Below, piece by piece: positions 10,146 through 54,141 of a stretch of DNA of 64,000 nucleotides (positions within the stretch are counted from its first letter, which is position 1; every line of letters starts with the position of its first letter). This DNA comes from a virus. Made by a program: the position numbers and the translations under genes. The notes below the pieces were generated by a model, which ran no database searches, had not been told where the DNA came from, and saw only the letters and a program-made list of their open reading frames with translations. The stretch is from positions 6,822-70,821 of the IMG/VR virus record IMGVR_UViG_3300017971_000034. The stretch is one strand, 5' to 3'.

Positions 10146-10230
10146 ATGGGGTCCCCCCAAGTTAACCAAGGATGTTACCATAGACCGGGCCGCGGCGCCA
10201 GTCTTATATTCTATGGCGGTTACGTAGATA

Positions 10231-10297
10231 CGGGGGGCGGGAAGTCGAACCCCGTCCTGCCCTCAGCATCGGCAGGAGCCGACCACTCGGCCCCCCG
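10231..10297 (-). ncRNA. tRNA-like cloverleaf (degenerate, possibly Ser-GCT derived)
   Basis: CGGGGGG/CCCCCCG acceptor stem, CCGAGTGGTCGG D-like arm, TCCTGCC/GGCAGGA arm, CGGGG-TTCGACT-TCCCG T-arm; intergenic. Confidence 0.6.
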
Positions 10298-23940: not shown

Positions 23941-25542
23941 CTACCTCCTCACCCTTAAGGTACCGTCCCCGGCCTCCACGCGCAAGGAACCTACCCCGAA
24001 ACGGTAGTCGTCGTGGGTTATCAGGACTACCGCCCGGTCCCTCGCCTGTTCCTCCATAACCTCGAGGGCGGCCCCCTTACCGACCGAGTCCAGGGAGTCG
24101 AACACCTCGTCGTAGAACAGGGTACCCTTACCCCGGCCGGTGGCCCCGGCCGCCACGTCCGACTGGGCGCACAGCAGGGCCGCGTCTACCCGGCTACGCT
24201 GTCCGCGGGAGGCGGCCCGGTACGGCCTCCCGTTAACCCCCAGGTAGATCTCCTCCCGGACGGACCCCCGGGACCCGTGCGTGCGCTGGGACAGGGAGAT
24301 ACTCAGGGAGGAACCGCCCCCGGCCGGGAGCCTGGCCAACCAAGAGTTGGCGGCCTCCTCCAGGGCCCCCAACACCGACCCCACCAACGAGGCCCTGGCA
24401 CCCCTCAAGCCCAGTACCTCCTCGGAGACCCCCAGCTCGGCCAGCTCACACTCCAGAGCGGACAGGTCCTCCCGCAACCCGCCAACCTCCCCCTCAAGCT
24501 GGGACATCTCCCCCAGTATCGCGTCCCTCCTGGACGCTGCCTCGAGGCGGGACCGCAGCCTAACCACGTACCGTTCCAGGTCGAGGGACGAAACCGCCAA
24601 CTCGGCCAACTCACCCTCCAGAGCGCCCACCAACCTTCGCAACCTACCTACTTCCCCCCTGGCCCCGCACAACGCCGCCTCGACGTTTATAACCCCGCGC
24701 TCCACCTCCGGAACGGCGGCGGCTACAAACCCTGAGTTCATCTCCTGTCCGCAGCGCGGACACCTATCCTCGTTCAACAACCGAAGCTTCTCATTAAGCG
24801 CCCCGAGGCGGGCCGCATCCTCGGTCGCCCTAACAGACCACTTGGCCTCCTCACGCCGTACCTTACCCAACCTAGAGCGCAGGTCGGCTTCGTCCAACGA
24901 AACCTGCTCCCGCAGCTCTAGGGACTCATCCAGCTCCCGACGCAGCCCCGCTACGTCTTCACCGCCGAACCCCTCCACGAAGGCGAGCTTCTCCTTGTTG
25001 GAGACCGCCAACTCGGCCAAGCGTAGCTGGAGACGGGAACGCTTCCTCACAGCGGCGGAGAGGTCCGCCCGACACCTCTCCAAACCAAGGTCGAACCGGT
25101 CTACCCCCAGAAGGGACTCCAGAAAACGCTTCCTGCCGGCATCGGTGGCCCCGGTAAACCTTACCTTGCCGAGGTCGGAACTGAACACGTGGGTACGGGA
25201 CCACACGTCCAGCCCCCCAAGGTAGGACTCCACCACCGCGGTTCCCTTGGTAGGCGTGTAACTTGACATCCCCCCATCCACACAGACCCGTAACTTGGGC
25301 GGGTTCTTAACCCTCGCGATACCGATCCCGTCGGCCCCTAAGGTAGCTATGCAACCGGAACCGGAAGCCGGGTCGGTACCCCGCAAGGTCTTACCCCAAG
25401 CGGCCCAAGCTACGGCCTCTACGATGCTGGACTTTCCGGACCCGTTATCCCCGGTAACCACCACCAAACCGTTATCGGGAAACTCCAGCTCCATCCGGCG
25501 GTAGGCCATGAAGCGGGAGGCGGATACCTTAAGAATTTTCAT
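23941..25542 (-). CDS. sbcC: SbcC/Rad50-like ATPase
   Basis: GDNGSGKS, CPRC zinc hook, SRGQ signature, FYDEVFDSLD, LITH. Confidence 0.92.
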   Translation of the reverse strand: MKILKVSASRFMAYRRMELEFPDNGLVVVTGDNGSGKSSIVEAVAWAAWGKTLRGTDPASGSGCIATLGADGIGIARVKNPPKLRVCVDGGMSSYTPTKGTAVVESYLGGLDVWSRTHVFSSDLGKVRFTGATDAGRKRFLESLLGVDRFDLGLERCRADLSAAVRKRSRLQLRLAELAVSNKEKLAFVEGFGGEDVAGLRRELDESLELREQVSLDEADLRSRLGKVRREEAKWSVRATEDAARLGALNEKLRLLNEDRCPRCGQEMNSGFVAAAVPEVERGVINVEAALCGARGEVGRLRRLVGALEGELAELAVSSLDLERYVVRLRSRLEAASRRDAILGEMSQLEGEVGGLREDLSALECELAELGVSEEVLGLRGARASLVGSVLGALEEAANSWLARLPAGGGSSLSISLSQRTHGSRGSVREEIYLGVNGRPYRAASRGQRSRVDAALLCAQSDVAAGATGRGKGTLFYDEVFDSLDSVGKGAALEVMEEQARDRAVVLITHDDYRFGVGSLRVEAGDGTLRVRR

Positions 25543-25765
25543 GCTTACCCTCCCAGGGAGATACCCCCACCACGGCGGTGGATAGCGACACCCTGGGAAC
25601 GCCGGAATCGCTGAGGGCCTCGGCGTAAAACTCCCTGTACTGAACCCGCTTGCGGACCCCCAGCAAGGATACGGCGTCCCCGACACCCTCAACGTCGGTT
25701 AGACCGCTAGCGGTCCTAATAGCCACCTTATTACCGAACTCGTCCACGTACACGACGCGCATCAC
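25529..25765 (-). CDS. Hypothetical protein
   Basis: Between sbcD and sbcC, overlapping both. Confidence 0.5.
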   Translation of the reverse strand: MMRVVYVDEFGNKVAIRTASGLTDVEGVGDAVSLLGVRKRVQYREFYAEALSDSGVPRVSLSTAVVGVSPWEGKHENS

Positions 25766-26829
25766 GACATATACCCCCTAACCCTGCTCAGAACGGAGTC
25801 CCTGTCGACGCCCCCCGGCAGGTCCATACTGTCCACGAAGGAGACCACCAACTCGTCCACGGAGGCACCAGCAACCGCCCCGCTACACCTAGCCCGGTCC
25901 GACCCGACCGGCTGTACCCACACCAGCGGGTCGTCCTCGAACTCTACAACATCCGTGTCGGGTTCCTCGCTCAACAGCCTTACCCGGGCCCCCGGCTCCT
26001 TACGAAGCTCTAACGCCATGTCCGTCAGAGGGGTAGTATAAAACCTAGGCCCCGGAACCACCACCCGCCTAACCGAACCCCCGTCCCACAGGAGCACGGT
26101 ACCGTAACTCTCGTCACCGCCCGGGTTGCGCCAACCGACCGGACACAGCGCCCCGACCTGGAATACCTCAACGTTGGGGGAGGGTGAGGCGTACGACCAC
26201 CTGGTGAACGCGTGCCAATGTCCGCTGAAGGCGAACCGAACGTTCAACTTATCCAATAGCTTCAGCAAACCTAAGGCTTCCAGGGCACCGCCATCGCGGC
26301 GCAGGTAAGGAGGGGTGCTGTCATCGTATATGCCCTGATGCATGCCTACCGCCCCGAAGTATCCCCGGTCCCACACGGCATCGGACACGCAGTCCCCCAA
26401 CTTCTCCAATGTCATCCCGGAATCGTACGGCAGGAGCAGGACCGACGCAGGGTGCGAACCGACCACCGTAGGCTCGTCGCAGACGGCACCGAAGCAGCAA
26501 CCGTCCGGCACCGGCACCGCCAGGGGGCCGAGGGAATGGTCCCCGGGTTGGTCGGACCGGGCCTCGTGGTTCCCAAGCAGAAAGTATACCGGGCAACCGG
26601 CCTCCCCCATCGCGTCCTGGACCCCGCGGATCAATTGTGGTTCCGGGTGCGGCGAGTCGAACGTATCACCAAGCAGAACGAACGCCGACGCACCGTCATC
26701 GCACGCTGCGCGAAAAGCACCCCTCAACGCCTCTAGGGTCATCCTACCGCGGGAGTTTATGCCGGAGACGAGCGGTCCACCGACCACCCTGTGGTTGGCC
26801 ACGTGGACGTCGGCCGCGAGGGCTATCAC
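25762..26829 (-). CDS. sbcD: SbcD/Mre11-like metallophosphoesterase nuclease
   Basis: ADVH, LGDTFD, GNHE, HQG, SGHWH. Confidence 0.92.
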   Translation of the reverse strand: MIALAADVHVANHRVVGGPLVSGINSRGRMTLEALRGAFRAACDDGASAFVLLGDTFDSPHPEPQLIRGVQDAMGEAGCPVYFLLGNHEARSDQPGDHSLGPLAVPVPDGCCFGAVCDEPTVVGSHPASVLLLPYDSGMTLEKLGDCVSDAVWDRGYFGAVGMHQGIYDDSTPPYLRRDGGALEALGLLKLLDKLNVRFAFSGHWHAFTRWSYASPSPNVEVFQVGALCPVGWRNPGGDESYGTVLLWDGGSVRRVVVPGPRFYTTPLTDMALELRKEPGARVRLLSEEPDTDVVEFEDDPLVWVQPVGSDRARCSGAVAGASVDELVVSFVDSMDLPGGVDRDSVLSRVRGYMS

Positions 26830-27491
26830 GCGGCACCCCCGGCCAGGCACTCCGGGCGGAGGGGACAGGGAACACAGTCCATGGACCCGGGACGGCAGAG
26901 CACGGCCCCTATGTCCAGCAGCCCGCACACGGCCCGGTAACATGGGGGAGGCTCCTCGGGCAGTCCCCGATTACGGACGGTAACGTCGGGGGTCGCCCCT
27001 AGGGCGGCCAATGCCGACATACCGTGCCCACCTAGAGAAGGTTCGTACCTACCGGCAATCCTCCGCAGGTTGACGTCGGACGGCGCGGCCAGGTAACCGT
27101 AGCGCAGGGCCGCCATAGCGGCCGTATACGATACGCCAGCGCGGTACAGCAGGCCCGCGGGTGCAGAACCGGACACCGATACCTCCATCGCCAGCGTCGT
27201 TATGTCGCGGTCCTTCTGGGTCCCCAACCCCAGACGGCGGCACCTGTTTACCCGCTCCGCAGAGGGCAGCGATAGCCAACCGGAGGCCGTACGGACACCC
27301 TCGAAGAGGTCCCAGAAAACGGACGCTACGTTCTCGGCCCTGGTCCGTGGCAGCGCACCCTCTACCAGGACCTGCAATTCCGGCGGACACCCCGGCTCAC
27401 GCCACGGTAGGCCGCGGTCCAACCAGTGTTCGTCCGCCCACGCCAACAGCGCCTCCGAGTCCACCACCCTACCGCTCCTTACGCTCGGCAC
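26826..27491 (-). CDS. Compact MutY-like HhH-GPD glycosylase with Fe-S motif
   Basis: LPWRE, VE..L.RT, DVNLRRI, LLDIGAVLC-x6-C-x2-C-x5-C. Confidence 0.8.
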   Translation of the reverse strand: MPSVRSGRVVDSEALLAWADEHWLDRGLPWREPGCPPELQVLVEGALPRTRAENVASVFWDLFEGVRTASGWLSLPSAERVNRCRRLGLGTQKDRDITTLAMEVSVSGSAPAGLLYRAGVSYTAAMAALRYGYLAAPSDVNLRRIAGRYEPSLGGHGMSALAALGATPDVTVRNRGLPEEPPPCYRAVCGLLDIGAVLCRPGSMDCVPCPLRPECLAGGAA

Positions 27492-28712: not shown

Positions 28713-29075
28713 TCACGAGAGAAGACGATTGGAAGCTGACCGGGAACCGCTCTCTCCGCCCGCAGGATCGGAAGCTGACCGGGAACCGCTCTCTCCGCCC
28801 GCAGCCACACCGGCTTTCCACTCCTCGTGCATGACACGACCCATGCCGTACTTCTCGGCCAAGAGGAGAAATGCTCGGAAGAGTTTCTGGTAGAAGCGAT
28901 TCCCACGCTGGCCGTAAGCCCAGCCGGTGTCATAGGCCGCCATTTCGAGCTTGTCTTTGAAGTTGGTAGCCTCCAACTCAGGATTGGATCGAACCCACTC
29001 CTCCGCTCGAGCGTACCAGTTCTCGTCGGGGGTGAATCCTCGGGGGATCTCGTACCATTTCCTAACTACCCACAT
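28713..29075 (-). CDS. Hypothetical protein
   Basis: AGGAG RBS; overlaps the recA end. Confidence 0.5.
28731..28804. repeat. 39-bp-period tandem duplication
   Basis: ggaagctgaccgggaaccgctctctccgcccgcag occurs twice. Confidence 0.9.
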
Positions 29076-30025
29076 CTCCTAAATACCTCCTCCTCTATCG
29101 CGGCCATCAGCTCCGGGTCATCACGCAACCGCTGCACCACCCGTAGCCTCCCCTGGGCTACGTTGTTACCGCGGAAGGAGAACCACGCCCCCTTCTGTTC
29201 TACCTTACCAAGGCCCACCGCCAGCTCCAGTACCTCGGCCTCACGGCTGATCCCCTTACCCCACAATATATCGAACTCGCACTGCTCCCACGGTACGGCT
29301 AGCTTGTTCTTGACGACCTTGACGCGGGTCCGGCTCCCCACCGTACGCTCACCAGCCTTAACCTGCCCAACCCGCCGTACGTCGAGCCGCACGCTCGAGT
29401 AGAATTTGAGGGCGTTACCCCCCGGCGTGGTCGTCCGAGAACCGAACACCACCCCTATCTTGTGGCGGGTCTGGTTGGTAAACAAGATCAGCGTGTTACC
29501 ATAGTAAGCGACCGAGGTTAGGGAACGCAGGGCCTTAGACATCATGCGGGCCTGGGCCCCGATATGCGTATCTTCGTAGTCACCCTCAAGCTCCGCCTTG
29601 GGGGTAAGCCCCGCCACGGAGTCTACAACGACGATCGCGACCTCCCCGGACTCGCACAGCAACCGAACGGCCCCCAGAGCCTGCTCGCCGCTATCCGGCT
29701 GCACGACCAACAACTCCGACCAGTCCACCCCCAACGCGCGGGCGTAGGAAGGGTCAAGAGAGTGCTCCGCGTCGATAAAGGCGGCCCCCAATCCGGACAC
29801 CTGCGCGCTGGCCACGGCGTGCAGGCACAGGGTGGTCTTACCGCTGGACTCCTCGCCGAACACCTCGGCGATCCTACCGCGAGCGTATCCGCCCACGCCC
29901 AGGGCCCGGTCCAACCCCAAGCTACCCGTGGATATTACCTCAACGGGGGCGTGCTCGGAGACCCCGACCACGGACCCGGGATACTTAGCCTTCAGAGCCT
30001 TGATCGCCTTCTTCATTCCCGCCAC
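29066..30025 (-). CDS. recA: RecA recombinase (bacterial type)
   Basis: [56 protein letters not shown]. Confidence 0.97.
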
Positions 30026-30530
30026 CCATGACTTCCCCGAACGCTCCCACCACCGTACTCCACACCTTGTCGCGGCGGCGCTCCTTAAGCCCGCGGTACC
30101 CCTTCACCTTCCTTAACGCGTACGTAACGGACGAGTGGTCCTTGCGCCCCAACCACGACGCAACGTCCACCAAGGGAGCGGCCGGAAACCAGCGCGCCAG
30201 GACCCAAGCAGCCACCTGGCGCGCCTCCCTAACCTGACCGTTGAGGCTGTCCCCCCTAACGTCCCGCGACGATACCCCGTAGAGGTGGGAGACGACGTCC
30301 AAGATATCCTGCCACCGGACGACCGCTGATACCGTTATCGGCGGGCCCCTCAGGATCCCCGCACATTCGCGGAGGGCGTCCGACAGGACCTCGGCACACT
30401 GGGCCAACCGCTCGTCGACGCCCTGAACGATTGACCGGTCGTTCACGATGGCCACCGCGTCAGGAACGTGGAACCCTTGCCGTAGTACCGGCGGGCCCAC
30501 CAATACGTCAGGCGCCGCTGAATCCTGCAC
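29985..30530 (-). CDS. Stand-alone DnaA C-terminal (domain IV) HTH protein; start uncertain
   Basis: [42 protein letters not shown]. Confidence 0.8.
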
Positions 30531-31314: not shown

Positions 31315-31672
31315 GCATTAAATTACTACAAACGAAACGAGAACAACCGCCGCACAACCACACCTCCCCGCACCCGGTAACGGGACCACCAAAACCGGAA
31401 ACGTCTAACCAGGTACCGTTCACCGGGAGGGGAGACACCCGCGCCACGAACAGGTCGAACAGCTCCCGCACCCTGGATAGAGCCTCGACGGCCTCGTCCA
31501 CGGACAGGTCCCGACCCGCACAGTCGCCGGACCACTCGCTGCGGAGGTCCGAGAACAACGCCGCGCCCTCCTCACCGGCGACATGGTACGCTACCTCGGA
31601 CAACTCCTCAACGAGGGCGGCCAAGCACCCCGTATAGCTACAGGTACCCCGACCCCCCACGGTGACCGTTAC
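31286..31672 (-). CDS. Hypothetical protein (start uncertain)
   Basis: Fills the gap after the PurA-family gene. Confidence 0.4.
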   Translation of the reverse strand, partial: VTVTVGGRGTCSYTGCLAALVEELSEVAYHVAGEEGAALFSDLRSEWSGDCAGRDLSVDEAVEALSRVRELFDLFVARVSPLPVNGTWLDVSGFGGPVTGCGEVWLCGGCSRFVCSNLMLDTEYGIMF

Positions 31673-32742
31673 CACGGGAACGACCGACGCCACACGGTAT
31701 CGGCTACCCGCGGGCCGGTAGACAGGATATCGAAGGGGCGCCCCACCAGGGACTCGTTGTTCCGGATCCAGTCCCTGGTCTTGGTAGATAGACGGCCCCA
31801 TTCGCACACCCCCCTATCCTCGTGGTTCAGGTAGTCGACGAAGGTCAGCGCCAGCCGCGTCGGTTGACATACCGTAACGGCCCTCCTGACCTCCAACGGG
31901 TCGAACAACGCAACGCGGCGGGTACGCTTCGACACGGTCGTCTGCTCGACGATCGGCTCCGGGGACCCGGAAAACTCCGTAACCTCCTCCCACGTGGTCT
32001 CCCTACCCATGGGGCCGCTAGTTCCTGACCCAACCGACGGTACGCGGATGGGGAAGGTACGCACCACCATTACGACCTCGTTAACCAGGTGCGGGGCCAC
32101 CCCCACCTCGGAACACACCACCGCCGGGCTGGTATCGCGCGAGGTAACGTACGGGTAGTACCCGTAGTAGGAGCTGAGGCCGAACCCCTGCGTACCCTCC
32201 AACAGGATGTTGCGGCCCTCGGTACGGGCTTCGTCCACCACCGACGGAACGTCCCCCAGGTACCTCTGGAAGCGCGGTTCGTCACCCGCCAGCGGGACGT
32301 CCCGCCTGCCGCGGTCCAGTATACGGCGGGCCAGGGCCTCGCCGGTTCCCTCGGCCGTGGACCCTATGCGGTCCCGCAGCGACCCCTCCGGAGAATTCCC
32401 GTCGTCGACGTGACCCTCGCGCCTCATATCCTCCCGCGTTACCAGACTAGCGCGCGGGTCGATAACGAGGCGGTCGGGCCCCAACCCGAACCTGGCTATC
32501 TCCTCGCACAGTACGTCCGGCTGCAGTACCGCCCCGGGGCCGATGGCCATCCGCAGGTGCCGATAACACGCACCAGAAGGGAGACTGCGCGTAACGTGGA
32601 ACGCGCCGTTCGGACCCTCGAACACGTGCCCCGCGTTGGGGCCGCCACCGCGTACCGACAGGTCCGCCCCCTGAGCCAGCATACCGGCCACCTTGCCCTT
32701 CCCCTCGGAACCGAACTGGCCACCCACCACCACCGTTATCAT
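31669..32742 (-). CDS. purZ: PurA-family synthetase with PurZ0-type signatures (probable diaminopurine/Z pathway)
   Basis: GGQFGSEGKG (Ser at the PurA Asp13 position), NAGH, EGTQG, YPYVTSRD, RTFPIRV, SGP, TTVSKRTRRV, TFVD. Confidence 0.8.
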   Translation of the reverse strand: MITVVVGGQFGSEGKGKVAGMLAQGADLSVRGGGPNAGHVFEGPNGAFHVTRSLPSGACYRHLRMAIGPGAVLQPDVLCEEIARFGLGPDRLVIDPRASLVTREDMRREGHVDDGNSPEGSLRDRIGSTAEGTGEALARRILDRGRRDVPLAGDEPRFQRYLGDVPSVVDEARTEGRNILLEGTQGFGLSSYYGYYPYVTSRDTSPAVVCSEVGVAPHLVNEVVMVVRTFPIRVPSVGSGTSGPMGRETTWEEVTEFSGSPEPIVEQTTVSKRTRRVALFDPLEVRRAVTVCQPTRLALTFVDYLNHEDRGVCEWGRLSTKTRDWIRNNESLVGRPFDILSTGPRVADTVWRRSFPW

Positions 32743-45662: not shown

Positions 45663-46154
45663 ATGATCGAGTGCTGTCTGTCGAGCTATGACGCCGACCC
45701 GTGTCAGTTTCATACTTGTAAGATGGTGCGAGCCGTGAAGACGCACCAGTGCTATGAGTGTGGCGAACAGGTCGACGTCGGGGAGCTACACGAGTATGTG
45801 TTCGTGGTCGACCAGGACGGAAATTCAGAGTCGATTCGGACGTGCGTCGTGTGCCTGGCCGTCCGCAACGACCACGACTGCGGGGATGGATACATCTACG
45901 GTGCGCTGTGGGACACGCTGCGTGAGTGCTACGGGACAGAGGTAGTCGATGATCCGGAGGACCATGACCCCGACGACCCCCACACTAACCCATGGGAGCC
46001 GCCCCCAACGTGTGGATCGACCACGGCGTACTACGCGCATCACTGGAGGCGAGATAGTGATCAATGGGTGTGTGGGCGATGCGGTCTCGGTTGGATACCT
46101 AGGTCACTGCAGGCGCTGGCTGACAACTTCCGTCAAGTCAACCAGGACGACTAA
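45663..46154 (+). CDS. Cys-rich hypothetical protein
   Basis: HQCYECG..RTCVVC. Confidence 0.6.
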   Translation: MIECCLSSYDADPCQFHTCKMVRAVKTHQCYECGEQVDVGELHEYVFVVDQDGNSESIRTCVVCLAVRNDHDCGDGYIYGALWDTLRECYGTEVVDDPEDHDPDDPHTNPWEPPPTCGSTTAYYAHHWRRDSDQWVCGRCGLGWIPRSLQALADNFRQVNQDD

Positions 46155-46405
46155 TGAGGTACGTTCCCGGTAACTGGACGCGCTCAAACGTCGAGATGGT
46201 ACTGCTGGGGGTACAGGGTAGGGTGAAGCGCGGGGACGTCCGGCAACTGGTGCTGGCCCAGCGCCACTCCACCAAACCAACCGAGGTAAGGGAGCGGATC
46301 GTCCAAGTTGTTGGTGACGTACCCCGCCTAGAAATATTCGCCAGGGAGGTAGTGCCGGGGTGGGACCACCACGGCAACGAACTACCGGGAGGGGTAGAGA
46401 TATGA
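46154..46405 (+). pseudogene. C-terminal remnant of an MT-A70-family adenine methyltransferase
   Basis: GNWTRSNVE..HSTKP..RLEIFARE..GWDHHGNE; the catalytic DPPW half is absent. Confidence 0.75.
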
Positions 46406-46761: not shown

Positions 46762-47356
46762 GCACATCCGGGCGCGTATCGAGGCCTGCCTGGCGCTGGC
46801 AGCCTGCTCCAACTGCCCACGCGGGAAGCACGGGGCGATGTTGCTGGACCCGGAGCGCAACGTAGTACTGGCCGACGGTTACAACGGTGCCCCCCGCGGG
46901 GGCGGGGAGCTGTGCGGCGGTTCGTACTGTTTACGCAACGGCCTAGACCGTACCTCCATGCACATCCTGCCGGAGGGTGGCGACCTAACCATACAGGTGG
47001 ACGGTCGCGTCCTAGAACGCTACCCTAAGACGACCCGCAACCGCGACCTGTGGGCCCGTATGGACGCGCTGGCCACGCCACCGATCCCGTCCGGTACCAA
47101 CACCGAGGTAGGGTGCCACCACGCCGAGATGAACGTCATCTGCAACGCCGCCGCCAACGGTACGGCGACCAAGGGAGGGTGGCTCATCGTAACGGGCGAG
47201 CCCTGCCGCATGTGCGCAAAGCTCATCCACCATGCCGGAATCGTCAAGGTATTGGTGGTTAACGGCGGGTACGGTGGCCCGAACGGTGTAGGGTACCTGC
47301 GCAAACACGGCGTCGAAGTAACATCGTACTCCGTATCCGACAGGGGGATAACGTGA
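46751..47356 (+). CDS. dCMP deaminase
   Basis: SNC.R..HGA, GYNGAP, HAEMN, PCRMC. Confidence 0.92.
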   Translation: MKDKHIRARIEACLALAACSNCPRGKHGAMLLDPERNVVLADGYNGAPRGGGELCGGSYCLRNGLDRTSMHILPEGGDLTIQVDGRVLERYPKTTRNRDLWARMDALATPPIPSGTNTEVGCHHAEMNVICNAAANGTATKGGWLIVTGEPCRMCAKLIHHAGIVKVLVVNGGYGGPNGVGYLRKHGVEVTSYSVSDRGIT

Positions 47357-47937
47357 GCGCGTGTTCCAGGTGCGGGTACGTACCGTGCCGGTGCGGGTGG
47401 GTAGGGGACCAGGACAACAGCGTCGTGCGTCGCAACGTGGAGACGGAGTGCGAGCGGTGCGGCGCCTCCGTTACCGTCGATACCTTCTCACCGCACCCGT
47501 ATTTGTGCTCCGGATGCTCCAAACCGTCGCCGGAGAACCTCCTACCGGTAGTCTGCGGCGACTGCGGGGATACGTTCATGGGGGACCCCGGAGAGCGGTC
47601 CACCTGCCCGGATTGCGACCCCGACCGTTTCACGAAGCACGACGGCGGCAAACCGGACCTGGCGCTGTGGCCGCCGCGCGCCTTCGAATCGGTGGGGAGG
47701 GTGCTCACCTACGGTATCAAGAAGTACGCTCCCGGTAACTGGCGCAAGGTTAACGAGCTGCGCCGCTACTACAGCGCCGCCCTCCGGCACCTCTTCGCCA
47801 GGCTGCGCGGTGAGCGTTTGGACTCGGAGAGCGGGCTACCGCACCTGGCGCACGCGGTGTGCTGCCTGGCGTTCCTCCTAGAGTTGGAGGAAGAGGAGCT
47901 AGAACCTACCCCAGAACGAACGAGGGCGATGTGGTAA
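47353..47937 (+). CDS. Zinc ribbons plus DUF5664 (dATP/dGTP diphosphohydrolase-type) domain
   Basis: KHDGGKP..VLTYG.KKY...NWRK..AALRHL..D.ESGLPHLAHA. Confidence 0.85.
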   Translation: MSACSRCGYVPCRCGWVGDQDNSVVRRNVETECERCGASVTVDTFSPHPYLCSGCSKPSPENLLPVVCGDCGDTFMGDPGERSTCPDCDPDRFTKHDGGKPDLALWPPRAFESVGRVLTYGIKKYAPGNWRKVNELRRYYSAALRHLFARLRGERLDSESGLPHLAHAVCCLAFLLELEEEELEPTPERTRAMW

Positions 47938-48536: not shown

Positions 48537-49571
48537 GTGAGCAACTTCTACGATTACGGCGACTGGGACGACGACGCTGCTACTGAGGAGGACGAGGAGC
48601 TGAAGCGCGGCTCCGGCGACTTCCGCAGGATCGAACCGGGTAAGGTAAGGGTCCGTTTCCTGCCGCCCCCTCCCGGCCAGCGCAACCCCTGGAAGAAGGT
48701 TTTCCAGCACTTCGTTAAGCCTCCCGGGCGCGGTGAGGACCCCATCGTCTTCCCCTGCCCCAAGAGGGAGGCCAACCGGCCGTGCCCCATCTGCAGGCAC
48801 GCCGACCGCCTCTTCCGGACCGGTGCCCAAGCCGACAAAGACCTCGCCTTCGACCTCTACCCCAACATGCGGATCTTCGCCGAGGTAGTCGTCCGCGGCG
48901 AGGAGGACCGCGGCGTTCAGATCCTCCCCTTCGGTAAGATGATCTACGGCAAGCTCATGAAGATCCGCCGCGACCCCGACAGCGGCGGCAACTTCACCCA
49001 CCCCCTACACGGCTTCGATATCATCATCGAGCGCGAGGGTACCGGTAAGCGGGATACCCGCTACGACACACGTACCGTCATGCAACAGTCCCCGCTCGGT
49101 ACACCCGAACAGATGGAGCTGTGGCTCGACCCCGACGAGCGGAAGGACCTCAACCGCTTCGCCGTTCCCGTCCCCGTCGAGACCGTCGAGCGTGCCCTGG
49201 CCCTCGCCACCGGTGGGGAGCCGGACCCCGTCTCCTCCGAGGTCGTCCCGGCGGGACGCCGCCTCAACTCCGCCCGCAACGTAACACCGCGCGCGCAGGA
49301 CCAGCTCTACAGGACCACCGCCGCCGGCCTCCGACAGTACTCCAACGGGTTCAAGCGGGACGGCCTCAACCCCTCCTTCACCACCTTCAAAAACTGCGCC
49401 ATCCTGGCCAAGGGTGAGAAGTCCATCCGGGTCCGGTTCGACGACAGGGACGAGTGGGTTCCGTTCAGCCAGATCGGGGACGACTCCGAACTCTGGGAAG
49501 ACTGCGAGGTGGGAGAGGAGGGTGACCTCATCGTTACCGAGTGGTGGGCCACCAAAAACTTCCTCCTCTAA
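48537..49571 (+). CDS. gp32-like single-stranded DNA-binding protein with an extra C-terminal domain
   Basis: VRFLPP, H..C..CPIC zinc site, GFDIIIEREGTG..TRY. Confidence 0.82.
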   Translation: MSNFYDYGDWDDDAATEEDEELKRGSGDFRRIEPGKVRVRFLPPPPGQRNPWKKVFQHFVKPPGRGEDPIVFPCPKREANRPCPICRHADRLFRTGAQADKDLAFDLYPNMRIFAEVVVRGEEDRGVQILPFGKMIYGKLMKIRRDPDSGGNFTHPLHGFDIIIEREGTGKRDTRYDTRTVMQQSPLGTPEQMELWLDPDERKDLNRFAVPVPVETVERALALATGGEPDPVSSEVVPAGRRLNSARNVTPRAQDQLYRTTAAGLRQYSNGFKRDGLNPSFTTFKNCAILAKGEKSIRVRFDDRDEWVPFSQIGDDSELWEDCEVGEEGDLIVTEWWATKNFLL

Positions 49572-49697
49572 CTTTACCAGGAAGGCCCCTCCGAAATACC
49601 CGGGGACCCCCTCACACAATAGTCGGTGGGGTGGTAGCCCCAGTCACCGGAAGGGGCCTCCCGCACAATACAGAAGCTATAAGGAGGAGGAAGTTAG

Positions 49698-50447
49698 ATG
49701 TTGATGCTACACGACGGGGGTAAAGAGCAAGAGACCCCACACTTCATCCGCTACTTCGAGGCGACGATGGGGATGCTGGACTCCGTCCCCCTGCCACCCG
49801 AGACGCGTACGTACCTACCCATAGGTCACCGGGAACTCATCGAGACCGTTAGGGAAGGTTTCTCCAGTTCCGTCGGGCTGGAACCGGTTGAAGAGTCCCT
49901 TTCCCTGGCCCGGGGCGGCAACCAGATGTTCTACGTCGGCCGGTACGGCCACTGCGAGGAGCTCGGTACCGGTCTCGCCGTCGGGCTACGCAACTCGTAC
50001 GATAAGTCCCTGGCCGCCGGTATGTGCTGCGGCGCGAAGGTATTCGTCTGCGACAACCTGTGCTTCGACGGGGACGTCGTGGTGTTCCGAAAGCACACCA
50101 AGCACGGTATGCGGGACGTACGAAAACTCGTATCCGAGGCCGCTGAACTGGCCGAGGACCGGTTCTACGAGATGGTCGCAGACTTCGACGCCTTTCGGGA
50201 GGCGGAGCTCTCCGAGGAGGAAGGCTTCGCCCTACTGGGGAGGCTGTTCTACCGGAAAGTATTGAAGGTCAAGCAGTTTACCGTAGCGTCCAACGAGTGG
50301 CGCTCCCCCTCCCACGATACCTTCGACGACCGGTCGGTCTGGTCATTCTACAACTCCGTAACCGCCGCCCTGAAGACCGCCGGTCCCGGTAACGTGTTCC
50401 AGCTGCATTCCAGGCTGCACCGGTTCGTGCACGAAGAGGTTCTGTGA
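49698..50447 (+). CDS. DUF932-like protein
   Basis: TY.PIGH, GLRNSYDKS, VFVCDNLCF, RKHT. Confidence 0.75.
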   Translation: MLMLHDGGKEQETPHFIRYFEATMGMLDSVPLPPETRTYLPIGHRELIETVREGFSSSVGLEPVEESLSLARGGNQMFYVGRYGHCEELGTGLAVGLRNSYDKSLAAGMCCGAKVFVCDNLCFDGDVVVFRKHTKHGMRDVRKLVSEAAELAEDRFYEMVADFDAFREAELSEEEGFALLGRLFYRKVLKVKQFTVASNEWRSPSHDTFDDRSVWSFYNSVTAALKTAGPGNVFQLHSRLHRFVHEEVL

Positions 50448-50737
50448 TCGCCATACTACTATACGCCGCGGCCTCCTGGTACGCCGTGAAGGCCCGACGA
50501 ATGATCGGTACTACTCGCGGCATCAACTACCGCGAGGTTGCCGAACGCCTCGAGAAGCCGGCGTGGTACCTGTTGGTAGTGGCCGTATCGGTTACCGCCA
50601 CCCTGTACGGGTGGTGGTCCGGGATTGGCGCTGAGCTGGCCGCCTGTGAAGCGGCGGGCGACCCCGCCGGAACGGCCTACTACTCCTACATCCTTAACAA
50701 ACTGGAGGTAGTGCTGTGGGTAGCGGTAGTACTGTAA
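50444..50737 (+). CDS. Small membrane protein
   Basis: Three hydrophobic segments. Confidence 0.55.
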   Translation: MIAILLYAAASWYAVKARRMIGTTRGINYREVAERLEKPAWYLLVVAVSVTATLYGWWSGIGAELAACEAAGDPAGTAYYSYILNKLEVVLWVAVVL

Positions 50738-50855
50738 CAATAGCCGACGTGGCAGCGAGGTGGGTGGGCGCCAGGACCATCCACCGCCACCACCTGAGTT
50801 CTTCGAAACCGTTCGGGATCAAGGCATTGGAGATCTTCAGTGCAGGGAGGGCATC

Positions 50856-51599
50856 ATGACGCTCGTCCTGTCGCTGTTCCCCGGGATCGGGTTACTCGAC
50901 CACGCGTTCGAGGCTGAGGGCTTCTGCGTGGTGCGGGGGCCTGACGTCCTGTGGGGCGGCGACATTCGGACGTTCCACCCCCCCAGCGACAGGTTCGACG
51001 GTGTGATCGGTGGCCCGCCCTGCCAGCGCTGGTCGCGGCTGGCCAATCTCGTGCGGCACGTCCACGGCGAGGATGCCCTTGCTCCGGACCTAATCCCGGA
51101 ATTCGAGCGGTGTGTGAGCTCGGCACAACCCGCGTGGTTCTTGATGGAGAACGTACCGGAGGCCCCACCTGCCAAGGTGGGTGGGTACGACGTGCACACC
51201 CTCGTGCTCAACAACCGGACAATCGACCGCGGGGACGGGATCGGCCAGGCACAGCAGCGCCGGCGACGTTGGAGCTTCGGCACCCCCGATGGACGTCGCC
51301 TCGACCTCGCCCCCGAGCTCGCCGTGCTGGACCCACACAGTGGCCTGTGCCGTGACAGCTGGCACATAGTCAGCTGACTCCAGCAGACAAAGCAACGACG
51401 TGGGCACGTGGAGGGGCGCTGCTCGCGCGCGTGGCTGGTAGAGGCGATCAAAGCCCAGGGGCTGCCCGAGGGCTGGAGTATCGCCCCGCCGTTCACGGTG
51501 CGCGCCGCGGTCCGTGCTGTTGGCAACGGTGTCCCGGTCCCGATGGGCCGAGCCCTGGCACGCGCAGTGCGACGGGCAATGGTCGAGGTGGCAGCATGA
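50856..51599 (+). pseudogene. C5-cytosine methyltransferase, broken by deletion/frameshift
   Basis: LFPGIG, GGPPCQ, MENV, QQRRR in one frame (stop at 51377); motif IX/X QGLP..VGNGVP in another frame. Confidence 0.8.
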
Positions 51600-51635
51600 C
51601 GAGGACGACACGATTCACATTGCATTCCGGCGGTC

Positions 51636-51812
51636 AGGTCGAACAGCGAGCTCTGGGAGGGGCGGGCCATGATCGGCGGCCGGGTGTCCAAGTCTCATCA
51701 GAACGTCACGCTCACGACCAACGTGCTCAAGCAGGCGGTGGGCTTGGACCTCGATGCCGCTGAGCAGTCTCTCGAGCAAGCACACGCGAGGGAGGTCCAT
51801 GTCGCGCAGTAG
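51636..51812 (+). pseudogene. dndB: 3' end of dndB (DNA phosphorothioation)
   Basis: Frame not in the ORF track: RSNSELWEGRAMIGGRVSKSHQNVTLTTNVLKQAVGLDL..EQ.LE. Confidence 0.75.
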
Positions 51813-51927
51813 CCGTCGTTCCACGCTGGCCGAGGGAAAGCTCTCTTCGGTCATCGACGCTCTCGTCGCAGAGGTCCGAAAGCTGTATCTGGACGACGAG
51901 ATCCCGTGGGTCGTGGGCTACAGCGGT
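51799..51927 (+). pseudogene. dndC: 5' end of dndC, truncated within the YSGGKDS loop
   Basis: GGAGG RBS; EVRKLYLDDEIPWVVGYSG then unrelated sequence; overlaps the dndB end as in native operons. Confidence 0.78.
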
Positions 51928-51994
51928 GTAGGGTCTGGGACCGGCCACATGCGCTTGGTGCGTAGGTGGCACCGGGGGACGGAGCGCCCCGCGG

Positions 51995-52801
51995 TTACTC
52001 GGACTGATAATTGACGAACAGCACCTCGATACCCGACGCCAGTAGCACCTCTAGTACCTTCTGAATCTCCGGAAAGGCCGCCCCGAGCAGGTACGGGGGG
52101 TACGGTCCCTCCTCCTGGGAGCTAGGCTCGAACTCGTCCTCCTGCAGCTGCCCTCCCCAGGGCTGGTTGGGTGGCCGAGCCCCGGCATCGTCCTGCAGGT
52201 ACGTGGGCGGCGCGAAGGCCAGGTCGTCGTACAGTACGACCTTTACGAGGTTATTGTACCCGCCCGCGCCCAGTCCCTCGGTAGCCTCCTCCACGCGGAA
52301 CGGCAGTATTAGGGCGGTATACTGGGCGGGCTCCTGGAAGGCTGCTCCGGACCAGTACGGCGCGTTGACGGTCGGCACCAGCTCCACGTACGACCCGGCA
52401 CCGACCGTGTCCGGACCGGCCACCTTGTAGACGTTTCCGACCAACCTGCGGCTGTCCTCGCCCAGTTCCCTAACCTCCACCCACCTACCAACGTGTTCCT
52501 GGTTGAAGGCGTACGGCCACTGGGCCGTTAACCGCCGAGGGTTAACGGGGTTTACCGAGACGACCAATTCGGTGTCGAAGTCCGACAGAGCGGCCCGCAG
52601 GAAGCGTATCGTGGCCCCGGCGGTACCGCGTGGACCGAATACCACCTCCAGCATAGCCGCCCGCCACGCGTCCTCCGAGATGGCGGCCGGGTACGGGATC
52701 CGGTAGAAGTCCGACAGGACCCTAAGGGCGGAACCGGCCGTCTTCCCGACCACGGTATCTCGGAAGGCGTCCTCGGTAGCGCTGAGCGGTTTAAGAAGCA
52801 T
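51995..52801 (-). CDS. Baseplate/tail protein
   Basis: Last gene of the tail operon; WRAAMLE...RGT wedge-like pattern. Confidence 0.6.
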   Translation of the reverse strand: MLLKPLSATEDAFRDTVVGKTAGSALRVLSDFYRIPYPAAISEDAWRAAMLEVVFGPRGTAGATIRFLRAALSDFDTELVVSVNPVNPRRLTAQWPYAFNQEHVGRWVEVRELGEDSRRLVGNVYKVAGPDTVGAGSYVELVPTVNAPYWSGAAFQEPAQYTALILPFRVEEATEGLGAGGYNNLVKVVLYDDLAFAPPTYLQDDAGARPPNQPWGGQLQEDEFEPSSQEEGPYPPYLLGAAFPEIQKVLEVLLASGIEVLFVNYQSE

Positions 52802-53513
52802 CTGGTAACAGCCCGGTTACGTGGTGCGGGAACAACTTCAGTTCGTCCGGAGGTACGGACGTTACGTCCAAGAAGACCTCGGAACCGCGGGACAGTGCTA
52901 CGCGCAGGTACCTGTCCGGAACGACGTTTAGAAGGGCACCGTCGGCCTTACCACCATATTCCACGTGTACTCCCTCTATCCACACACGCCCCTTGGTGGG
53001 AAACGTCAACGTACTCTCCACCAGGGCGGTACCCTCCCCCTCCTGTAGGTCGTCCACCAACCGGGTAACGGGAACGCCGTATATCTTCTGACACTGTAGC
53101 CCGAAAGCGTGTAGAAACGTCTTGAGAACGCCGTCCGGTACGTCCTCGAAGGCTGGGGTAAGCCCCGCGGATACCACGAACGCTATGGCGTTCGGGGCCG
53201 CCAGGGCGGGCGCTACGGTGGCGGCGTCTAGGGCCGTCAATAGGTACTGGGCACCGGGCGTTAGCTGTGGGTGTACCCCCAGGATTACCACCAGGTTGGA
53301 CGGGGCTACCTGGACCGACGCCACCGTAACCTGCGCCCCCAAAGAAGTGAGTACCTTTAAAGACCACTCCGAAGGATCGTCCACCGTGTCCGGGTCGACG
53401 GCCACGCTGAACGTCGCCCGCAGCGTGGAAAGGCTGGTAACGGCTACCGAATCCAGATAGAGGCCCCCCTCCACACCCCACGGCGACCCCCACGGTTTGT
53501 CCCCCCAGTCCAC
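52791..53513 (-). CDS. Tail/baseplate protein with Ig-like domain
   Basis: WG..PWG start, TFS.AVDP, LTPG.QY. Confidence 0.6.
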   Translation of the reverse strand: MDWGDKPWGSPWGVEGGLYLDSVAVTSLSTLRATFSVAVDPDTVDDPSEWSLKVLTSLGAQVTVASVQVAPSNLVVILGVHPQLTPGAQYLLTALDAATVAPALAAPNAIAFVVSAGLTPAFEDVPDGVLKTFLHAFGLQCQKIYGVPVTRLVDDLQEGEGTALVESTLTFPTKGRVWIEGVHVEYGGKADGALLNVVPDRYLRVALSRGSEVFLDVTSVPPDELKLFPHHVTGLLPDAS

Positions 53514-53514
53514 C

Positions 53515-54141
53515 TTACGGCTCCAACCTCGTGAGCGACCACGTAAGCTGCAAGTTGACCGCTGTAGCCGTTTCGGCAAGATGAGACAACGACACAACAT
53601 CTGCCGCAGATAGGTTCAGCAGACGATGAACGACGACCTGTGCCGACTCTCCCGACGTAACGGCGTTACTGTATGCGCGTACTGCGGTATCTTCGGTTCC
53701 GTTCACAGCCGGTACCAACTCAAACACCCAATCGGCAGCCGGTGCCCTGAACGTAGCTACGGCTTCAAACCGGTAGGCGCCGGCACCCGATGCTTGCACG
53801 GTAAAATCGTCCGATCCATATGTCAAGTACGGCGATCCCGACTCGTAGTGAGCTGTGGCACCGGTTACCTTAGCATAGGTTACAGACGTAGAAAAGGCAC
53901 CGTCAACCAGTTCAATGAACCCGTACGAGGCCCTCATCTTTTTAACAAGGTCCTCGACATTAGCAGCTGCGTGAACCAACATCGCCTGGATCAGATCAGC
54001 CGCCACAGCCTTGATATCGGCGCGCGACAGGTTGTAGTCGGCGGCCTGGGCCAGGGTGGTGTCCGGGGGACCATCGTTGGTAGTGTCCTGCTCGTTGTCG
54101 GGAGGTACCGACGACGGATAATTGGAAGTTGGTAGCGCCAT
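53515..54141 (-). CDS. Short fibre/receptor-binding-like protein
   Basis: ALPTSNYPSS start; C1q/BclA-like beta C-terminus; AT-richer 3' part. Confidence 0.55.
   Translation of the reverse strand: MALPTSNYPSSVPPDNEQDTTNDGPPDTTLAQAADYNLSRADIKAVAADLIQAMLVHAAANVEDLVKKMRASYGFIELVDGAFSTSVTYAKVTGATAHYESGSPYLTYGSDDFTVQASGAGAYRFEAVATFRAPAADWVFELVPAVNGTEDTAVRAYSNAVTSGESAQVVVHRLLNLSAADVVSLSHLAETATAVNLQLTWSLTRLEP

Follow-up and report, generated by a model that had tools for sequence, protein, structure and literature searches.

In a window of phage DNA we have identified a 295-bp piece that joins the end of a dndB gene to the beginning of a dndC gene, and which piece is most probably a non-functional remnant of a bacterial-type dndBCDE operon. 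The window, by which term we mean the whole stretch of 64,000 nt that was analysed, comprises bases 6822–70821 of a virus record of 70,821 bp having direct terminal repeats and classed as 100% complete; according to our own script, the terminal repeat is exact and 123 nt long and the GC content of the record is 63.6%. The earlier note on this DNA had proposed that the piece might dampen the phosphorothioate modification or defence of the host, through either an antisense RNA or a DndC N-terminal peptide, and had mentioned a neutral recombination scar as the alternative, which alternative is the reading that we find the most likely. The coordinates of the features considered below are collected in Table 1.

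Table 1. Features of the dnd piece, its flanks, and other genes mentioned in the text, with positions given in the window.
Feature	Position	Strand	Basis
PurA-like synthetase gene	31669-32742	-	
PF18909 gene	47353-47937	+	
Replication and nucleotide-metabolism block	~35.5-51.6 kb	+	profile matches
MT-A70 adenine methylase remnant, 83-aa frame, C-terminal half	46154-46405	+	profile 89-172/172
C5-cytosine methylase gene, one in-frame TGA (51375-77)	50856..51599	+	PF00145 on both halves
Spacer, 33 bp, methylase stop to dnd homology	51600..51632	+	0/5 conserved DndB columns, residues 1-12
dndB 3' remnant, last ~59 codons plus TAG stop	51633..51812	+	TIGR03233, blastn
47-aa open frame, Met of WEGRAM to dndB stop	51669..51812	+	read from sequence
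GGGAGG Shine-Dalgarno-like hexamer, 3 nt before dndC ATG, embedded in dndB tail	51790..51795	+	sequence
dndC 5' remnant, 43 codons, native ATG to GYSG	51799..51927	+	NF005316, TIGR03183, blastn
Chimeric open frame, 71 aa (43 DndC plus 28 unrelated residues)	51799..52014	+	called protein P0116
Spacer, 67 bp, 74% GC, dndC break to tail-gene stop	51928..51994	.	two GC-rich hairpins without U tract
Last minus-block baseplate/tail gene, 268 aa, no Pfam/PHROG name	51995..52801	-	baseplate genes upstream
Minus block, beginning with baseplate/tail genes and continuing through the portal region on the circular map	from 51995	-	

Identity and limits of the dndB–dndC piece

The reading frame taken from position 51600 corresponds to the extreme C-terminus of DndB: its residues 12–61 align with positions 305–354 of the 355 in the TIGR03233 profile (E 1.4e-12), Pfam PF14072 matches the same frame over positions 301–337 of 338 (E 1.6e-6), and the remnant holds the invariant WEGRAMIGGRVSK..NVTLTTN block. 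Neither score attains the cut-off of its family (47.3 bits versus 328 for TIGR03233 and 27.9 bits versus 29.1 for PF14072), and the TIGR03233 coverage just cited falls short of a full-length DndB of ~360 aa, the first ~310 residues being missing. The ParB-like DGQHR domain is absent from the piece—in DndB homologues that motif lies ~200 residues upstream of the position of the break—and a search of the whole genome returned the C-terminal DndB match only. At the left break the invariant Trp of DndB is here an Ala (codon 51630–32), and the first conserved residue retained is an Arg (51636–38). The 47-aa frame within the remnant is preceded by a GGAGG at 51655–59, 9 nt upstream of its start, which pentamer itself lies within the WEG codons.

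The adjoining frame, which starts with the ATG at 51799, corresponds to the extreme N-terminus of DndC, as judged from matches to NF005316 (E 1.9e-7, profile positions 7–49 of 505) and to TIGR03183 (E 7e-6, positions 2–33 of 447, 25.2 bits versus a cut-off of 290.4). At the right break the homology stops after GYSG (51916–51927), within the PP-loop motif GYSGGKDS, and is followed by the unrelated VGSGTG; a complete PP-loop SGGKDS and the PAPS-reductase-like domain are absent. At the thresholds applied, the 86-aa frame (P0002) was assigned to neither a Pfam nor a PHROG family and gave, in NCBIfam, DndC N-terminal matches only. The piece is accompanied by no dndD, dndE, or dndA, and the search of the complete genome yielded no second fragment of DndB or DndC.

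The arrangement of the two remnants is that of the native operon. The ATG of dndC overlaps the end of dndB (TAG at 51810–12) by 14 nt, as in bacteria, and the GGGAGG hexamer is the native ribosome site of dndC. Counted from the coordinates, 104 nt separate the stop of dndB from the PP-loop motif, as compared with 72–203 nt, and mostly 98–119 nt, in the bacterial loci (24 of 26 having both motifs located); which comparison set consists of the 26 bacterial dndBC loci among the matches listed (601 stretches). In blastn against those 26 loci the DNA homology runs from ~51632 to 51926–51928, and the two blocks of the piece both align within the same loci, with their order preserved and their spacing nearly so; this colinearity with bacterial dndBC junctions marks the piece as one contiguous capture. 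The phage piece thus resembles the bacterial dndB–dndC junction (TIGR03233, TIGR03183) in gene families, order, strand, start/stop overlap, and PP-loop spacing, but differs in comprising only ~59 plus 43 codons and in having a best DndB identity of 68–72%. Hence the description from the letters alone—a DndB end overlapping a DndC start with its ribosome site, both sharply cut—is borne out by profiles (TIGR03233, NF005316, TIGR03183) and blastn, and the limits proposed at that time, 51636 and 51927, prove correct to within a few bases.

Inside the piece the signs of neutral decay are absent: over ~100 codons there is no stop and no frameshift, nor is any invariant residue lost. In a set of 105 homologues, the DndB columns conserved at ≥90% are all kept from residue 13 on (25/25), the two misses among the 27 such columns (residues 6 and 11) falling upstream of that point. 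Of the 11 columns of the DndC head conserved at ≥70% across the 26 loci listed, 10 are retained, the sole miss being a change from Ile to Val. When the same ≥70% level is applied to the DndB tail, 29 of 35 columns are kept; real DndB keeps 32.7 on average (sd 1.8), and 4.8% of the real DndB tails score 29 or less. All six departures from the consensus fall within the ten columns conserved at 70–90% and none within the 25 stricter ones, a distribution that random placement would produce with a probability of C(10,6)/C(35,6), or ~1e-4 by our own arithmetic; the restriction of the departures to the looser columns makes the divergence look as if inherited from a functional donor, with little alteration after the capture. 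The retention of all the strongly conserved residues would mean that either the capture was recent or the piece is under selection, and the absence of decay, as read from the sequence, is compatible with a recent capture.

The genomic site and the neighbouring genes

The piece lies inside a 395-bp gap at which the plus and the minus blocks converge, the edges being the stop of the C5-methylase gene (51597–99, plus) and that of the baseplate/tail gene (51995–97, minus); its location where the plus-strand block meets the minus-strand tail operon had been recognized from the outset and is confirmed by those two stops. The plus block contains genes for helicases, a DnaB-like helicase, a family-A DNA polymerase, a dCMP deaminase, a gp32-like SSB, a DUF932 protein, and the C5-methylase. 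Searches between positions 50400 and 52900, or 51000 and 52500, recognized neither a sigma-70-like promoter nor an intrinsic terminator, nor did any Rfam family match. The hairpins of the 67-bp spacer have folding z values of −1.3 to −1.8, which are not significant with respect to shuffled sequences. Nor did we see any sign of a terminator split by the insert, the flanks when joined as if without the insert folding no better than shuffled sequences (z +1.3 and +0.9). If the two hairpins did terminate both blocks, the piece would be placed in the 3' untranslated part of the plus transcript and outside the minus transcript, an arrangement that would suit a peptide product better than an antisense RNA. 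If the region were transcribed, both the 47-aa DndB tail and the 71-aa DndC head could, by their sequences, be translated; the last 20 nt of the 71-aa chimeric frame are shared with the end of the tail gene.

The neighbouring modification genes are damaged as well. The in-frame TGA of the C5-methylase gene falls between the part with motifs IV–VIII and that with motifs IX–X, the gap from the motif VIII-like QQRRRR to the C-terminal methylase motifs is unusually short, and both of the public assemblies considered further below carry the same methylase sequence as the window; the gene is probably a pseudogene. The MT-A70 methylase is represented by its C-terminal half, a search of the whole genome having revealed no N-terminal half and no other MT-A70 match. 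That two or more further DNA-modification genes of this block are damaged speaks for a tolerance of dead accessory DNA in this genome.

The methylase and the DndB tail share one reading frame, which from 50760 to 51812 on the plus strand (351 codons) is open but for two TGA codons. A recoding of TGA that would fuse the methylase to the DndB tail was considered and rejected, with 19 of the 45 ORFs checked ending in TGA and the only tRNA being Ser(GCT); since TGA is the commonest stop and there is no suppressor tRNA, we judge the shared frame to be a coincidence. That tRNA-Ser (anticodon GCT), at 10230–10297 on the minus strand, is the sole tRNA found in the window. The local repeats near the piece are short two-copy families only; a 17-nt imperfect direct repeat (88%) at 51495–51511 and 51979–51995, which brackets the 3' end of the methylase together with the piece, is one such short family and probably due to chance.

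As to the remainder of the genome, the minus-strand genes at 29066–30025, 23941–25692, 25762–26943, and 29985–30530 include one for a bacterial-type full RecA (PF00154, E 1e-104), a pair for an SbcC-like ATPase and an SbcD-like phosphoesterase, and one for a small protein with a DnaA C-terminal DNA-binding domain. Also present is a gene for an adenylosuccinate synthetase of a short, PurA-like type (357 aa), which in the PDB matches best the short PurA of archaea and chains entered as PurZ/PurA-like; a dATP/dGTP diphosphohydrolase domain (PF18909) and the family-A polymerase accompany it. Such a set of a PurZ-like enzyme, a dATP/dGTP diphosphohydrolase, and a family-A polymerase marks the phages that replace adenine by 2-aminoadenine. 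For the 268-aa tail protein, 207 relatives were recovered at E ≤ 0.001, of which the closest other than itself is 47–48% identical; some of those relatives are C-terminal parts of proteins of 450–870 aa, and in distant relatives the protein comes after the baseplate genes.

Donor, host, and recurrence in other phages

The donor of the piece was not found in the protein collection, the species genomes, the plasmids, or the metagenome contigs. In the collection of 5.8 billion proteins, 113 of 241 candidates were DndB, the best being 72% identical over 71% of the query and 56% over all of it; within residues 13–65 of DndB the best identity was 68%, as compared with a median of 85% between real DndB tails of the same set and their nearest neighbours. 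The 26 dndBC loci of species genomes among the matches listed are 49–67% identical and belong to the Planctomycetota, Binatia, Acidobacteriota, Rokubacteriota, Alpha-, Beta-, and Gammaproteobacteria, and Streptomyces, and closer species genomes may exist beyond that list. Overall, the closest DndB tails come from Planctomycetota, Binatia, Acidobacteriota, Proteobacteria, Actinomycetota, and others. At the DNA level, the identity to bacterial dndBC is 73–83% over 45–103 nt (blastn, conserved core). The plasmid search returned 14 records, all below 60% identity, and in the JGI metagenome contigs no stretch matched a degenerate pattern written for 11 consecutive variable residues of that tail of DndB. 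These comparisons suggest that the donor carried a canonical DndB-containing dnd cluster and belonged to an unsampled lineage.

The homology searches, which had been proposed in order to establish both the identity of the piece and the host, therefore settled the former as Dnd and did not provide the latter. Moreover, the expectation that the piece would serve as a strong host marker did not hold: with the closest DndB at 68–72% protein identity, with 73–83% at the DNA level, and with the matches spread over many phyla, the piece is a weak one. The RecA of the phage, compared for the same purpose, has best bacterial matches of 54–64% identity in many lineages, the named ones being mostly Gammaproteobacteria, and by sequence that comparison appears not decisive. 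Nor does composition mark the piece as distinct, its GC content being 0.64 versus 0.635 for the genome and its GC3 of 0.77–0.86 lying within the range of the phage genes.

In a tblastn search of 50,697 phage records, the DndB tail gave no true phage match, the single match being a mislabelled 501-kb Salmonella contig; six 8-residue patterns returned 21 stretches in IMG/VR, with no relative among them. For the 86-aa frame (P0002), the proteins of 47–151 residues in the collection of 5.8 billion contained no cluster beyond the phage's own 71-aa product. In the literature searched on phosphorothioation, DndB, and phage anti-defence, we met with no description of a dnd fragment in a phage.

Close relatives of the phage were likewise not found, either in INPHARED (with the DNA of the fragment and a 19-kb stretch), in IMG/VR (by the tail protein, the DUF932 protein, the DndB tail, and the DNA polymerase), or in the JGI metagenome contigs (by the tail protein). 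An alignment of 17 relatives of the tail protein was too divergent for a search of loci, and we used instead one of five sequences, which led to six distant viral loci of 28–38% identity; the records of five of those six were searched for DndB. Thus, when the presence of the piece in related phages was checked, as the earlier note had proposed, the answer was negative: DndB was present in none of the five distant relatives (0/5), and no close relative was found. The absence of the piece from relatives is real but weak evidence because no close phage relative exists in the collections searched, and with no second phage bearing the piece its conservation cannot be judged.

Origin of the piece and alternative explanations

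What the piece looks like is a recombination remnant: both ends are truncated, the order is colinear with that of the donor operon, and no complete partner gene is present. The loss of the DGQHR domain from DndB and the cut within the PP-loop of DndC imply that no working product would be made, and neither part could serve as an enzyme or as a regulator of the known type. We infer both the route of entry and the lack of function. An illegitimate recombination with a dnd-carrying genome—that of a host or of a co-resident mobile element—would have brought the piece in, which DNA may have arrived short, or longer and then been trimmed by deletion; the untranslated gap between the convergent blocks would be the site where extra DNA costs the least, and the piece, most likely a recent acquisition, would simply have not yet decayed or been deleted. 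Work on mycobacteriophage mosaicism has reportedly traced host-gene fragments and mosaic joints to illegitimate recombination. The piece resembles such scraps in being sharp-edged cellular DNA that is unrelated to its neighbours and situated between gene blocks, but differs from them in that its source is a defence and modification operon, found in no true phage record searched.

Several observations count against the remnant reading. The ribosome site and the ATG of dndC are intact and gene callers predict the 71-aa product; the piece exhibits no decay and has kept the strongly conserved residues; it is identical in two public runs, one from 2018 labelled as a sediment metagenome and the other from 2021 labelled as a seawater metagenome; and it adjoins a methylase, in what is a typical neighbourhood for counter-defence genes. 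Four other explanations were weighed against the remnant.

An unlikely explanation, though the one that survives best, is that the phage formerly bore a dndB(CDE) module of its own with which it marked its DNA, and which module was later lost, perhaps after having become redundant upon the adoption of a different DNA chemistry. The two other DNA-modification genes broken in the same plus block would fit such a history, as would the short PurA-like enzyme matching PurZ chains and the dATP/dGTP diphosphohydrolase domain; but no true phage record of the 50,697 contains a DndB tail and none was found by pattern in IMG/VR, so that a phage-borne dnd module would be without precedent in those collections, and the truncation of both ends of the piece would require two deletions.

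It is improbable, in turn, that the piece has been kept because of an activity against phosphorothioate immunity, whether as a peptide from the early/replication operon or as an RNA directed to the start of dndC. The peptide version, which we regard as having an equally slight chance, supposes that the plus operon reads through the stop of the methylase and that the 47-aa product, the 71-aa product, or both are dominant-negative fragments; a DndB tail might, for example, poison DndB, upon which the phage DNA would be modified more and would escape DndFGH or DndI. In keeping with that proposal, both frames are intact with every strongly conserved residue kept, the GGGAGG and ATG of dndC are present, and the stretch from the methylase stop to the piece showed no terminator, the hairpins being only downstream (51929–51994). 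When a full-length homologue of DndB was modelled (mean pLDDT 79), the part that corresponds to the capture comprised a short turn, the conserved WEGRAMIGG loop, for which the confidence of the model is low, and the two final helices (329–346 and 353–370); as modelled, this terminal conserved loop with its two helices would form a small, separable unit. A search by sequence, however, returned no solved structure of DndB, and consequently no interface is known at which such a tail might act; no other phage was found with a piece of this kind; and the DndC head, which amounts to one helix and the opening strand of a Rossmann-like fold, would probably not fold by itself, to judge from the PP-loop ATPases in general. 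As to the proposed target, DndB is a member of the ParB superfamily that is reportedly an ATP-dependent negative regulator limiting phosphorothioate incorporation (PMC10853773), which role would favour the proposal. Against it, the sole phage anti-Dnd factor encountered in the literature searched, JSS1_004, is a kinase/shutoff protein and not a fragment (PMC12345140).

The antisense version, in which read-through from the tail operon would produce an RNA that pairs with the host dndBCDE mRNA and blocks the synthesis of DndC, is less probable still. The piece covers exactly the translation-initiation region of dndC, and the tail gene ends 67 bp away with no terminator recognized in a scan for the consensus; yet the pairing would need near-identity to the operon of the host, and no operon so close was found, the best DNA identity being 73–83% over short stretches. 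Furthermore, the two GC-rich hairpins between the tail gene and the piece could halt minus-strand transcripts, and a block in host modification would presumably not shield unmodified phage DNA from DndFGH.

The weakest explanation, that host reads were misjoined into a phage contig, is extremely unlikely: metagenome assembly can produce short foreign inserts at junctions within a contig, but here each junction is spanned without a difference by Logan contigs of two runs, which belong to two studies, at depths (26.6 and 30.5) in line with the flanks. Those two public runs, with no RNA run listed besides, contain all the sampled words of 50400–53400, a 6,988-nt contig of one spanning 49500–54000 and a 2,981-nt contig of the other spanning 51129–54000, each with 0 differences; coverage across both junctions, a check that had been proposed at the start, is thereby established, and, inasmuch as the record itself may derive from one of them, this amounts to at most one independent confirmation.

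The remnant reading also places the piece with respect to devices that phages do derive from defence loci. The pseudo-ToxI repeats of phage PhiTE and the RNA anti-CRISPRs built on CRISPR repeats are expressed RNAs that mimic the natural RNA partner and that recur across phages. The likeness is that here, too, a phage carries a partial copy of a host defence locus; the difference is that the dnd piece is known from its sequence only and that no recurrence was found. The stray DNA is unusual in kind for a phage, and nothing here shows activity. If the piece were expressed and directed against Dnd, the finding would matter far more, as the first case of a counter-defence device that a phage had fashioned out of a truncated copy of the very operon it opposes; we know of no counter-defence element built from a truncated defence operon. 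Such a device would follow a route wholly unlike that of JSS1_004 from phage JSS1, which is a protein with a kinase and a shutoff domain that inactivates the DndFGH of DndBCDE-FGH, and which likewise concerns phage escape from phosphorothioate defence (PMC12345140).

If the piece is a scar, its value would be modest, as a rare documented instance of dnd DNA inside a phage genome, with 0 others in the 50,697 phage records; and it would mean that a cell or element with a canonical dndBCDE operon of an unsampled lineage once served this uncultured phage, or an ancestor not far back, as a place of replication or as a partner in recombination.
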